Assembly: GCF_050920415.1 (NCBI RefSeq)
Contig: NZ_CP169309.1
DNA length: 64,000 bases
Source: Escherichia coli
GTDB lineage: Bacteria; Pseudomonadota; Gammaproteobacteria; Enterobacterales; Enterobacteriaceae
Direction: 5' to 3' (one strand)
This document shows positions 2 to 3,623 of the stretch, piece after piece. The position numbers were made by a program, and so were the translations under genes. Numbering within the stretch: the first letter of the stretch is position 1; every line of letters starts with the position of its first letter. Below the pieces are notes generated by a model that was given only the letters and a program-made list of their open reading frames with translations, did no database searches and was not told the DNA's origin.

Positions 2-850
2 CGATATCTGAAAATACAGGACACACGACTGAAAAATGGGGATATTGCAGCTACAACCCACAAAGAAAAAGCGCGAATGGCTGCATACCTGGTTTCCCGT
101 CTGGGAAACCACCCATTGAAAGAACTGGAAGTAAGAGACTTTGCATTAATACTGGACGAGTGGATGGATAAAGACATGGTCAGCACAGCGAGGGTAAATC
201 GCGGATTATGGGTTGATATTTATAAAGAAGCACAGCATGCAGGGGAAGTTCCTCCTGGATGGAATCCTCCGGAGGCTACCCGTAAACCGATCCCTAAAGT
301 AACCAGATCCAGACTTACCCTGGAAGACTGGCAAAAAATTTACAATGCAACACCAGAAAAACACTTTATCCGTAACGCAATGCTTCTTGCGATTGTCACT
401 GGTCAGCGCCGTGATGACATTTGCCATATGCGTTTTTCAGATGTGTGGAACGAACACTTGCATATCACCCAGGGAAAAACCGGAATGCGTCTGGCGTTAC
501 CGCTTACACTACGCTGTGATGCCATTGGTATAACGTTAAAAGAAGTTATTGATGGATGCCGAGACAGAATATTAAGTCCATATCTAATCCATAGTCGGCA
601 CCAGAAACAACCAAAGCCGATGAGTAAAGACAACCTGAGCGACTACTTTGCCAAAGCACGGGATCTGGCTGGGATAATTCCACCAGCAGGAAAAACCCCG
701 CCAACATTCCATGAACAACGCTCTCTATCAGAACGGCTGTACCGTGCACAAGGTATCGATACAAAAACATTACTGGGACATAAAGTCCAGGCAACTACCG
801 ATCGCTATAACGATACTCGAGGTCAGGAATGGGTTAAGTTGGTTGTTTGA
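2..850 (+). CDS. int: Tyrosine integrase, lambda Int family (C-terminal catalytic portion; 5' end outside window)
   Basis: Frame is open from the window edge to TGA at 848-850; sequence aligns with the lambda Int C-terminal domain (VTGQRxxD, HExRSLSxRLY, LLGH, Y..D.RG.EW motifs including catalytic Arg and Tyr). Confidence 0.9.
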   Translation, partial: RYLKIQDTRLKNGDIAATTHKEKARMAAYLVSRLGNHPLKELEVRDFALILDEWMDKDMVSTARVNRGLWVDIYKEAQHAGEVPPGWNPPEATRKPIPKVTRSRLTLEDWQKIYNATPEKHFIRNAMLLAIVTGQRRDDICHMRFSDVWNEHLHITQGKTGMRLALPLTLRCDAIGITLKEVIDGCRDRILSPYLIHSRHQKQPKPMSKDNLSDYFAKARDLAGIIPPAGKTPPTFHEQRSLSERLYRAQGIDTKTLLGHKVQATTDRYNDTRGQEWVKLVV

Positions 851-938
851 CAAAAATAACCATCCGGGATTATAGTCTGCGCACGCCAGCAAAATCTGGC
901 GTCGGGATTGGCGTCCCGGATAACATCACAACGCATAG

Positions 939-957
939 CCGCGTTTGCGGTTTTTTT
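939..957 (+). terminator. Putative weak intrinsic terminator downstream of int (4-bp GC stem, 7-T run)
   Basis: ccgc-gttt-gcgg followed by ttttttt about 90 nt after the int stop; stem is short so strength is uncertain. Confidence 0.3.
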
Positions 958-1056
958 GCGTTAAGCATTGCCACATTCGCATTATGGTGGGGCGTGCAGG
1001 GGCGGAGAAATCCGCGCCGGGTTTTGTGATGACCGGTTACGCCAACCCTGTACGTC

Positions 1057-1107
1057 TCACCACCTCCCTGATTGGCGTCAGAGGTGGTGATCATCCAATT
1101 AATTGGA
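1057..1107. promoter_or_regulatory. Operator-like symmetric elements upstream of rha: 10-bp inverted repeat with 14-bp spacer plus a 12-bp perfect palindrome overlapping the rha ribosome-binding site
   Basis: TCACCACCTC (1057-1066) and GAGGTGGTGA (1081-1090) are exact reverse complements; CCAATTAATTGG (1095-1106) is a perfect palindrome, with GGAG at 1105-1108. Confidence 0.35.
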
Positions 1108-1117
1108 GTCATCACAT

Positions 1118-1675
1118 ATGAATACAGCTATAACTTTTCCTAACGAGTCACCAAAAGTCTTTTTCAAAGATGGTCGCTTGGTTACCACCTCTCAAGCTGT
1201 TGCCGACTACTTCGATAAACAACATAAACACGTTTTAGCTAAGATTGACGCACTCGACTGCTCGCCCGAATTTACATCAGCCAACTTTTCGTCCGATGTT
1301 CAGACTGTCGAAATTGGCAACGGCGCAGAACGTGAATCACGATGCTACCTGATCACAAAAGACGGCTTCATGTTCCTCGTAATGGGATTTACTGGCAAAA
1401 AAGCAGCCAGACTAAAAGAAGCTTACATTGCAAAATTTAACGCAATGGAGGAAGAACTCCACAAACGCCCACCAGCAGCGCAGCAAACCTCGTCAGAAGA
1501 TGTCGGTTGCTCGTTGTTAATCCATTTCAATAACCACGGTCAGGTTGAGTTTACGGAAAAAGTCCCAGCCGACGCAATGGTGTGCACCCTCGAGCGTTTT
1601 AAGTTTTATCTGGAACAGCAAGGCTGGATAGTTGCCCGTAAGGAGCAACTGTTGGAAAGGTTAATGTCGCTTTAG
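1118..1675 (+). CDS. rha: Rha-family phage regulatory protein (antirepressor-like)
   Basis: 185-aa product with an N-terminal Rha/pRha-like domain (DGRLVTTSQAVADYF..KxHKHVL..I, KDGFMFLVMGFTGKKA); ATG at 1118 has GGAG 9 nt upstream; the ORF-track start at 1103 is TTG. Confidence 0.8.
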   Translation: MNTAITFPNESPKVFFKDGRLVTTSQAVADYFDKQHKHVLAKIDALDCSPEFTSANFSSDVQTVEIGNGAERESRCYLITKDGFMFLVMGFTGKKAARLKEAYIAKFNAMEEELHKRPPAAQQTSSEDVGCSLLIHFNNHGQVEFTEKVPADAMVCTLERFKFYLEQQGWIVARKEQLLERLMSL

Positions 1676-1682
1676 CTAATGC

Positions 1683-1706
1683 AAAAACCCCGGCATAGCC
1701 GGGGTT
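1683..1706 (-). terminator. Intrinsic terminator between convergent rha and the cargo operon (T-run on minus strand)
   Basis: ccccggc-ata-gccgggg hairpin at 1688-1704; A5 on the plus strand gives a U-run after the stem on the minus-strand transcript. Confidence 0.6.
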
Positions 1707-1711
1707 GGGAA

Positions 1712-2209
1712 TTATTTCAGGACAAGCGCATTCAGCGCCTCGATCACCTTTCCAAGATAACTGCCAAAAAGCCACCAGGTTACACCAGCACAGAATGAAA
1801 TCACCGCCAGACTCACGCCGATATAAACCTTTGCTTTCCTAATGGTATCATCTATGTCATCGAGTTTTTCGAGCTTTTTGTCTATTTGAGCTAACTCAGA
1901 CAATTTATGGGAATGCTCAGCAAGTGTCTTATTGATACTGTCCAGTGAGGACATTTTTTGCTCGATACCGGATAACGTTGTTTCCATACGAGTAACTGCG
2001 CATGCGAGAGACGCGTCATTTTTGACATCAGACAGGTGATTGTATACCTGATCAATTCTCTCATTCATACGCCTGTTATCCTCTTTCAGTTCATTGAAAG
2101 AATGGACGATCCATTGATGCTGTGAATGCCTTGACTCACCACCACCAGTAACTTGCGCATCTATATCCGGTGTGCGTTGGTCGCCACTATACGAAGATTC
2201 TCTCCCCAT
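1712..2209 (-). CDS. Hypothetical protein, 165 aa: predicted coiled-coil N-terminal region with a single C-terminal transmembrane helix (tail-anchored topology); function unknown
   Basis: ORF with ATG at 2209 preceded by AAGGGG 8 nt upstream and 2 nt after the upstream gene's stop; heptad-like charged region (KLSELAQIDKKLEKLDDIDDTIRKAK) then hydrophobic stretch VYIGVSLAVISFCAGVTWWLFGSYL; the longer ORF-track start at 2242 is TTG. Confidence 0.6.
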   Translation of the reverse strand: MGRESSYSGDQRTPDIDAQVTGGGESRHSQHQWIVHSFNELKEDNRRMNERIDQVYNHLSDVKNDASLACAVTRMETTLSGIEQKMSSLDSINKTLAEHSHKLSELAQIDKKLEKLDDIDDTIRKAKVYIGVSLAVISFCAGVTWWLFGSYLGKVIEALNALVLK

Positions 2210-2211
2210 AA

Positions 2212-2490
2212 TTATAGCCCCTTTGCACGCAACCACTCCCAAAGCGGCATTTTATGCCTTCCGTAATAAGAACTAACAGGGAGGATGATATATGAGTTCA
2301 AATTTTGTTCATCATTTCCACCATCCAGAACATTAAATAACTCCTGGGCAGTGGCGAGCTGGCTTTCGACGAACCAAAGGCAATCATCAACGTTCATGTG
2401 TTGCTCGGGGAATTTTTCTGCAACGACTTCCCTCATCAGCGCCCTGGTGTCATTATTTTCACTGGTTACTACGATAGCGAATATAGACAT
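2212..2490 (-). CDS. Hypothetical small acidic protein, 92 aa; first gene of the two-gene cargo operon; function unknown
   Basis: ATG at 2490 with AAAGGA upstream; appears translationally coupled to the downstream gene; no family recognised. Confidence 0.55.
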   Translation of the reverse strand: MSIFAIVVTSENNDTRALMREVVAEKFPEQHMNVDDCLWFVESQLATAQELFNVLDGGNDEQNLNSYIILPVSSYYGRHKMPLWEWLRAKGL

Positions 2491-2620
2491 GGGTGTGAGT
2501 CCTTTACGATAGTGCTCAAAAACAGTTCTGCAATAGAAATGTAAATCTGAGAAAACTGTCAGGTAAACCTAATGTTTAGCTATCTTATGTAGTTGACTTG
2601 AGCAAAACAAGAGAAAACAT
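2491..2620 (-). promoter_or_regulatory. Putative promoter region for the cargo operon
   Basis: AT-rich region upstream of the 2490 start; candidate sigma70-like hexamers on the minus strand (TTGCAG, 16 bp, TATCGT; TTTACC, 17 bp, TTACAT); none is a strong consensus match. Confidence 0.25.
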
Positions 2621-2739
2621 CACGAGACAGCAAATTTTGCAAACGAGCACAAAATATAAAAAGCTCCATCTATCAACAAAAGCTCGTCCGCAAACCAAGA
2701 AAAAATGTTGTAAAATGCGCAGCCTGTTTTGGGGAAAAG

Positions 2740-2759
2740 TTTTGGAGAGATTTTGGAGA
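2740..2759 (+). repeat. Direct repeat TTTTGGAGA x2 at 11-bp periodicity in an A-tract-rich segment next to the prophage-host junction
   Basis: Copies at 2740-2748 and 2751-2759. Confidence 0.5.
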
Positions 2760-2796
2760 AAGGAAAAAATTGAATAAATTCAAAATCCTGAAAGTG

Positions 2797-2832
2797 TCCC
2801 GCCTTATGAATAAGAAGGTGGAACTCGAATGA
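2797..2832 (+). other. potB: potB 3'-terminal remnant (about the last 11 codons, SRLMNKKVELE-stop) and probable prophage-chromosome junction (att core vicinity)
   Basis: Frame ending TGA at 2830-2832 in ATGA overlap with potC; C-terminal peptide resembles the PotB C-terminus as recalled; the same frame upstream is lysine-rich, unlike a permease, and stops at 2599-2601. Confidence 0.45.
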
Positions 2833-3623
2833 TCGGTCGACTGCTTCGCGGCGGTTTTATGACCGCTATCTACGCGTACCTGTATATCCCAATCATTATT
2901 TTGATTGTGAACTCTTTCAACAGCTCGCGCTTTGGCATCAACTGGCAGGGTTTTACCACCAAATGGTATAGCCTGCTGATGAACAACGACAGTCTGTTGC
3001 AGGCAGCTCAGCATTCACTGACGATGGCGGTGTTTTCGGCGACGTTTGCTACGCTTATCGGTTCACTGACGGCAGTTGCGTTGTACCGTTATCGCTTTCG
3101 TGGTAAGCCGTTCGTTAGCGGAATGCTGTTTGTGGTGATGATGTCGCCAGATATTGTGATGGCGATTTCTCTGCTGGTGCTGTTTATGCTGCTGGGTATT
3201 CAGCTTGGCTTCTGGTCGCTGCTGTTCTCGCATATCACCTTCTGCCTGCCGTTTGTGGTGGTGACGGTGTATTCGCGCCTGAAAGGTTTTGACGTGCGAA
3301 TGCTGGAAGCGGCGAAAGATCTCGGTGCCAGCGAATTTACCATTCTGCGAAAAATCATTCTGCCACTGGCAATGCCAGCGGTAGCGGCGGGCTGGGTGTT
3401 AAGCTTTACCCTGTCGATGGACGACGTGGTGGTTTCTTCGTTTGTCACCGGGCCGAGTTATGAAATTCTGCCGTTAAAAATTTATTCGATGGTCAAAGTC
3501 GGCGTATCGCCGGAAGTTAACGCGCTGGCAACCATATTACTGGTGCTGTCGCTGGTGATGGTAATTGCCAGCCAGCTTATTGCTCGTGATAAAACGAAAG
3601 GTAACACAGGGGACGTTAAATGA
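2829..3623 (+). CDS. potC: Spermidine/putrescine ABC transporter permease PotC
   Basis: 264-aa polytopic permease matching PotC; ATGA overlap with the potD start. Confidence 0.95.
   Translation: MIGRLLRGGFMTAIYAYLYIPIIILIVNSFNSSRFGINWQGFTTKWYSLLMNNDSLLQAAQHSLTMAVFSATFATLIGSLTAVALYRYRFRGKPFVSGMLFVVMMSPDIVMAISLLVLFMLLGIQLGFWSLLFSHITFCLPFVVVTVYSRLKGFDVRMLEAAKDLGASEFTILRKIILPLAMPAVAAGWVLSFTLSMDDVVVSSFVTGPSYEILPLKIYSMVKVGVSPEVNALATILLVLSLVMVIASQLIARDKTKGNTGDVK

Follow-up and report, generated by a model that had tools for sequence, protein, structure and literature searches.

The integrase gene and the potB junction

The window, a 64,000-nucleotide stretch of Escherichia coli DNA (contig NZ_CP169309.1), begins inside the integrase gene of a lambdoid prophage and runs through cargo genes and an attachment-site arm into the 3' end of potB. 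The potC start codon (ATG at 2829) overlaps the potB stop, and potD starts at 3620. The features that concern the junction, in window coordinates, include:

2..850, plus strand: prophage integrase gene, 3' part (residues 91-372 and the stop; the N-terminal arm-binding domain precedes the window start)
2696..2806, plus strand: integrase-proximal att arm (the P' arm in lambda nomenclature), common to potB prophages with differing left DNA
2706..2719: conserved 14-mer TGTTGTAAAATGCG, which precedes the repeats and can be recognised in every E. coli arm, as an exact match in most and in diverged form in two
2726..2735, plus strand: P'3, candidate arm-type integrase site GTTTTGGGGA, the copy most distant from the core
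2739..2748, plus strand: P'2, candidate arm-type integrase site GTTTTGGAGA, which starts 13 bp past P'3, a spacing as in relatives
2750..2759, plus strand: P'1, candidate arm-type integrase site ATTTTGGAGA, which starts 11 bp past P'2, again as in relatives, and is closest to the core
2760..2795: A/T-rich spacer that separates the repeats from the core, with one variable position among nine E. coli potB arms
2763..2775, minus strand: weak candidate IHF site (H'-like) ATTCAATTTTTTC, with two mismatches to WATCAANNNNTTR
2807..2820, plus strand: core TGAATAAGAAGGTG, 14 bp shared by attB, the two prophage junctions and the reconstructed attP
2807..2832, plus strand: host-derived final 8 codons and stop of potB, which the prophage separates from the rest of potB

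The translation of the integrase gene matches the 372-aa integrases of strain SC516 and of O157:H7, and the full-length protein was read from the SC516 and O157 copies (97-99% identical). The full-length protein, a tyrosine integrase, includes an N-terminal lambda Arm-DNA-binding domain (Pfam PF09003, Arm-DNA-bind_1; E 3.8e-21, residues 1-64) and the catalytic domain PF00589, and can be aligned over its length to structures of lambda Int (1z1b, E 5e-54; 1z1g; 5j0n). Over the full length, it shares 44% identity with phage 21 Int and likewise with the IntE-like integrase of the ompW prophage, compared to 35% with lambda Int. Judged from these comparisons, the enzyme is a member of the clade that includes the phage 21 and e14 integrases. 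A scan of viral contigs with the integrase alignment finds 80 loci, all at least 98% identical, which end at the int stop and so are devoid of arm DNA.

A megablast search of window positions 2400-3000 against 5,426 complete E. coli genomes returns three classes of match: (i) two genomes that match along the entire segment, (ii) many genomes, including O157:H7 and O145:H28, that match from 2696 onward, and (iii) genomes with an uninterrupted potB-potC, which match only from 2807 onward. The third class confirms the prophage-host junction that the initial annotation had placed at potB-like codons. The arm is present in 1,634 of the 5,426 genomes, and the empty site is seen in those that are arm-less (~70% of complete E. 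coli genomes). In O157:H7, potB has been described as a site of prophage insertion (PMC9997748).

The core was delimited by comparison of the window junction with attB of K-12 and with the opposite junction of the near-identical SC516 prophage, and was confirmed by script. Matches to the opposite junction in empty-site genomes stop exactly at the last base of the core; on these alignments, strand exchange must fall inside the 14 bp of 2807-2820. Inspection of the core flanks for core-type inverted repeats reveals no convincing symmetry. A search for a phage genome with a contiguous potB-type attP returned prophage-derived records only, and the attP is therefore reconstructed from the two junctions. 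At position 8 of the core (window 2814), the base is G here and A in several other lysogens at the same junction (L002 8115, L102 and L105, where L numbers designate loci of the analysis); it is G in the O157 opposite junction, which was taken from a different O157:H7 strain. If the A is phage-derived, the crossover would lie to the right of it, within AAGGTG.

In a lysogen, the functional potB resides at the other junction and ends in phage-supplied codons, with a product of 287 aa compared to 285 aa. On integration, the C-terminus of PotB is swapped from ...NKKVELE to either ...NKKVSELDD (SC516 type; opposite junction at L003 19753-19790) or ...NKKATEIDN (O157 type; L093 1597-1628). The phage thus brings its own, diverged sequence that mimics the end of potB. 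The far arm of O157:H7 is followed by espK, a type III effector gene.

Extent and conservation of the integrase-proximal arm

The integrase-proximal arm is delimited by an alignment of nine E. coli arms, drawn from four different left contexts, in which 2727-2795 is almost invariant. The variable positions are 2796-2806 and those upstream of 2726, and the DNA left of ~2700 is specific to each context. The interval of the initial annotation had started at 2660; its first 36 bp (2660-2695) are cargo of this prophage, missing from other potB prophages, and thus fall outside the arm. Most lysogens, O157:H7 among them, have xis-int directly against the arm; here, the int stop is separated from 2696 by 1.8 kb of cargo. 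The 14-mer TGTTGTAAAATGCG is also noted in a Raoultella-type prophage, where it is ~50 bp further away from the repeats. This displacement suggests that the 14-mer probably reflects common descent of the DNA downstream of int, and not a site of fixed position.

Tandem repeats of the arm

The arm carries a short word in three tandem copies. Two were recognized in the initial annotation, which described TTTTGGAGA as occurring twice, 11 bp apart; the window sequence bears out these copies at 2740-2748 and 2751-2759, with 11 bp from start to start. The third copy, absent from that annotation, is TTTTGGGGA at 2727-2735, which differs by one mismatch and starts 13 bp upstream of 2740. When both strands of the 64-kb window are searched, TTTTGGRGR occurs three times, all at 2727-2759 and on one strand. 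A total of three is unremarkable, as shuffled sequences give an expectation of 2.24 per 64 kb; three matches within 33 bp on one strand are, by calculation from the shuffle rate, expected in ~1e-6 of such windows. The repeats start at -80, -67 and -56 relative to the core start (i.e., 47-80 bp from the core), and the word is absent from the core itself. P'3 is invariant across the nine E. coli arms and has an equivalent copy in all relatives examined.

The far arm and the reconstructed attP

The opposite end of the prophage, where the initial annotation had proposed to look for the same repeat, carries the word at a fixed position. A further TTTTGGAGA of like orientation is located on the far arm of the reconstructed attP, +130 bp from the core start. 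The distance is exactly +130 in three far-arm variants (SC516, O157:H7 and CRE78-type), in which the DNA between the core and the word is largely diverged. The far-arm word is part of a conserved island with an IHF-consensus 13-mer (AATCAAACAGTTG, AATCAATCAATTG or TATCAGTCTATTG); all three variants match the consensus WATCARNNNNTTR, 8 bp ahead of the word. The far arm has one clear copy of the word compared to two in lambda, and a search for a second (P2-like) or inverted far-arm copy gives only degenerate candidates at ~+61 (TTTTGAAGG, TTTTGAGTG or ATTTGGCAT).

Within the SC516 prophage, clustered or att-associated copies of the word are found on the two arms only, with one isolated copy in the cargo at chance level. 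Across 82 kb of SC516, the sole other cluster is a TTTTGGGGA triple (L003 32592-32617) directly after a second, 21-type integrase at icd. Strain SC516 includes a second prophage, at icd, with the phage 21-type word.

Triples associated with related integrases

Integrases that share 43-77% identity with the enzyme of the potB prophage and reside at other chromosomal sites are followed, directly or after cargo, by a 13/11-spaced triple on the int strand. The comparison with related attP sequences, also raised in the initial annotation, thus recovers a triple of the same spacing after int in related phages and prophages elsewhere. The elements, with integrase identity and the words of the triple, include:

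Klebsiella phage ST13-OXA48phi12.4, near dcp (integrase 43%): TTTTGGGGA / TTTTGGAGG / TTTTGGGGA
K. aerogenes (integrase 74%): TTTTGGGGA, then TTTTGGAGA twice
Buttiauxella (integrase 65%): TTTTGGAGA three times
C. koseri (integrase 65%): TTTTGGAGA three times
Raoultella-type element, likewise at potB-potC (integrase 75%): TTTTGGTGA, then TTTTGGAGA twice
Providencia phage (integrase 44%): TTTTGGGGA / TTTTGGTGG / TTTTGGGGA
ompW prophage (integrase 44%): TTTTGCAGA three times
Klebsiella and Salmonella elements at icd (integrase ~49%): TTTTGATAA three times
e14 of K-12, at icd: TTTTGATAA three times

Across these relatives, TTTTG and the spacing are constant, while the following four bases vary with the integrase lineage, giving word endings of GGAGA, GGGGA, GCAGA and GATAA. 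In the alignment of N-domains, integrase residue 28 is Q in the enzymes associated with GG words and R in those associated with other words, a correspondence that spans few independent lineages. Residue 28 aligns with C25 of lambda Int, in the YYCYR segment. Residues 16-22 of the integrase also differ between word lineages. In the Providencia phage, a search of the far arm finds no clear copy of the word.

A blind scan for three TTTTGGNG words, in one genome per species of 100,044 species, detects at least 120 loci. Among the matches listed with 13/11 spacing, 11 of 12 follow a same-strand integrase homologue at a distance of 12-71 bp; among those listed with 12/12 spacing, none of 93 is near an integrase homologue. 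Triples with 12/12 spacing are typical of in-frame coding repeats.

Comparison with phage 21, e14 and lambda

Phage 21, which integrates in icd, is similar to the potB prophage in several respects. It has three tandem TTTTGGGGA words directly after the int stop and on the int strand, an additional (fourth) copy, oriented alike, past the icd fragment on the opposite arm, and an integrase of the same domain architecture at 44% identity. The differences include (i) the word, which ends in GGGGA compared to GGAGA in two of the three window copies, (ii) the spacing, 13/12 compared to 13/11, (iii) the target, icd instead of potB, and (iv) a 165-bp copy of the icd 3' end that separates the triple from the presumed crossover, such that the arm is ~230-265 bp in phage 21 compared to 47-80 bp here. 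The phage 21 record (GenBank OL657228.1) annotates, right after int, an 'attP' composed of three subsites, P1P2P3, with the consensus YYTTCCCCAAAA. This consensus is the reverse complement of TTTTGGGGAARR, and the annotation is a note in the record. Text searches of the literature for the word and for phage 21 arm sites retrieve unrelated papers only.

The cryptic prophage e14 of K-12 (intE/xisE, at icd) and its Klebsiella and Salmonella icd relatives similarly have a 13/11 triple beside the junction, and e14 resembles this window in the presence of cargo (lit, ymfD and ymfE) between int and the triple. By contrast, the e14 type is distinguished by the word TTTTGATAA, by R rather than Q at integrase residue 28, and by different residues at 16-22.

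The general layout resembles that of lambda. The lambda P' arm consists of P'1, P'2 and P'3 with the IHF site H', and the lambda arm consensus is C/AAGTCACTAT with a spacing of 10/11. Like the arm described here, lambda has three tandem int-proximal arm-type sites ~50-85 bp from the core, a distal site (P1) that is oriented alike on the opposite arm, and a heterobivalent integrase with a PF09003 N-domain, though the identity between the two integrases is only 35%. Lambda P'2, which is ATTTTGACTG when read in the int direction, has TTTTG and orientation in common with the window word. Lambda also has a second, inverted site on the P arm (P2), of which no clear equivalent was found on the far arm of the potB prophage.

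Assignment of the repeats and alternative explanations

The words at 2727-2759 are very probably the arm-type integrase sites P'3, P'2 and P'1 of a phage 21/e14-type att site, carried by a prophage at the 3' end of potB. The initial annotation had suggested arm-type integrase sites within an att arm, and this suggestion gains support from the far-arm word, the triples of the relatives, the blind scan, the PF09003 domain and the phage 21 annotation. At the level of sequence comparison, the feature appears to be an ordinary attachment-site arm of the known 21/e14 type.

Of the proteins that may read the word, the integrase is weighed against Xis or another accessory bending protein, for which tandem words would nucleate a short filament as lambda Xis does at X1-X1.5-X2. 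The lambda Xis sites are, likewise, three direct repeats about one helical turn apart. In addition, xis is located just upstream of int in every relative and Xis is homologous across the clade; since Xis is co-inherited with Int, the comparative data fit either protein as the reader of the word. A role as Xis sites is, nonetheless, considered unlikely. Presence of the word on both arms is a hallmark of arm-type integrase sites, whereas the lambda Xis sites are restricted to the int-distal arm, and the triple is on the int-proximal arm, as are lambda P'1-P'3. The motif and orientation that lambda P'2 has in common with the word, as well as the phage 21 record, in which the words are named as attP P subsites, also point away from Xis. 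The both-arm presence and the phage 21 annotation favour the integrase over Xis. A different explanation dispenses with a specific reader: the region may be mainly an intrinsically bent element of phased A-tracts, possibly with IHF sites, and the words a by-product. A-tracts are present at 2700, 2712, 2735, 2764 and 2782, as the initial annotation had described, and AA dinucleotides have a periodicity of 11-11.5 bp. The phasing to which that annotation attributed a bend is marginal (p ~0.02-0.03 compared to shuffles, with six periods tested), and much of it follows from the 11-13 bp repeat units themselves. Nor is the curvature predicted from wedge parameters distinctive: the peaks of ~50 degrees per 31 bp are equalled in neighbouring non-att DNA, positions 2564, 2637 and 2949 have peaks as high as those of 2696-2760, and the prediction for 2760-2810 is straight DNA. 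The A/T-rich segment 2760-2795 is nearly invariant in E. coli and includes the IHF-like match at 2763-2775; however, relatives keep the exact word and its spacing, while the adjacent A/T-rich DNA is unalignable between insertion sites. The word, moreover, shifts discretely with integrase lineage, which is unexpected for a purely structural element, and a bend without a specific reader is considered very unlikely. The proposal that the repeats themselves are IHF sites is not upheld, as the only IHF-like match of this arm, with two mismatches, adjoins them. A closer version (TATCAATTTTTTC, one mismatch to the IHF consensus) is present in the corresponding segment beside the repeats of the Raoultella-type potB prophage, and relatives inserted elsewhere do not conserve the match.

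Functions tied to the host genes or to a coding sequence are less plausible still. Insertion of the prophage cuts potC and potD off from the potA promoter, and the arm, conserved in 1634 genomes, could supply a promoter or other expression signal to these genes, which are immediately downstream in the same orientation and for which the potC ribosome-binding site is inside the core. A search of 2696-2828 finds no sigma-70-like site (-35/-10 with 16-18 bp spacing), the arm has no RNA structure signal (z 0.04) and no Rfam match, and the same triple follows int at unrelated sites (dcp, icd and ompW), where the neighbours are different or convergent. Thus, the repeats are not specific to potC, and an expression signal in the arm is highly improbable; transcription of potCD from a promoter elsewhere in the prophage, or by read-through from int, is possible. 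Open frames do extend across the repeats, namely a 59-aa ORF (2598-2777) and a 38-codon frame from the ATG at 2716 that, on inspection, runs into the potB stop. That the words are part of a small coding gene is scarcely credible, as each word falls in a different reading frame at spacings of 13 and 11 bp, the 59-aa ORF begins in cargo DNA that is missing from other potB prophages, and the relatives keep the DNA word and no ORF. In the blind scan, repeats of the coding type are all 12/12-spaced, with none integrase-associated among the matches listed.

Proposed mechanism and a possible word code

As arm-type integrase sites, the words would function by analogy with lambda. A single integrase subunit would bind an arm word through its N-domain and bind and cut the core through its C-terminal domains, as lambda Int does. 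DNA-bending proteins would fold the arms back onto the core; of these, IHF is the likely candidate, based on the consensus site beside the distal far-arm word and the weak candidate at 2763-2775. As in lambda, the direction of the reaction (integration or excision) may be set by the use of differing subsets of arm sites together with an excisionase. In the prophage state, the junction described here holds the P' half only and would act in excision.

The variation among relatives raises the possibility, advanced here tentatively, that 21/e14-type integrases recognize an arm word composed of an invariant TTTTG and a four-base code (GGAG, GGGG, GCAG or GATA) that a few N-domain beta-sheet residues would read. 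If this two-part code is true, arm specificity would be predictable and re-engineerable from sequence, and with it the failure of prophages in the same host to excise each other.

The value of the assignment is mainly one of annotation, as it concerns routine phage biology and has little bearing on open questions. It defines the core (2807-2820) and the arm limits of a potB prophage family that is found in ~30% of complete E. coli genomes and includes O157:H7, O145 and O104:H4. It also provides a DNA signature for the att-proximal end of 21/e14-clade prophages, in which three TTTTG-words with 13/11 spacing come after int, and shows sites where cargo modules insert without disturbing the att site.

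Cargo between the integrase and the arm

Between the int stop and the outermost word, different elements repeatedly have different genes. These include lit, ymfD and ymfE in e14, Bro-N genes in Buttiauxella, a 314-aa ORF in K. pneumoniae and a DUF2335 gene in another E. coli. The cargo loci of this type are window 850-2696, L089 3616-4510, L090 3634-4610, L100 1480-4680 and L105 596-1500. From these sequences, the int-to-arm gap looks like a preferred slot for cargo insertion that leaves the att site intact. One of the loci (L105) is from NZ_CP074792.1, which is labelled as a 155-kb plasmid and in which int, the arm, potC and potD are arranged as on the chromosome; this record may be a misassembly or a plasmid-borne chromosomal segment.

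In the window, the int-proximal part of the cargo includes RNA elements and a regulatory gene. Rfam matches are detected to the isrK Hfq-binding RNA (883-957, 76.9 bits), to c4-a1b1 targets (870-922) and to the C4 antisense RNA (980-1067, 75.9 bits), followed by an ORF with a Rha phage regulatory domain (1103-1675, Pfam Phage_pRha). Based on these matches, the segment 870-1675 looks like a P1/P7-like c4-antirepressor immunity module. The remaining cargo consists of two overlapping ORFs on the minus strand (1712-2490) that encode proteins of 176 aa and 92 aa with no Pfam match. In SC516, the 176-aa cargo ORF is interrupted by IS1 (L001 19087-19784).
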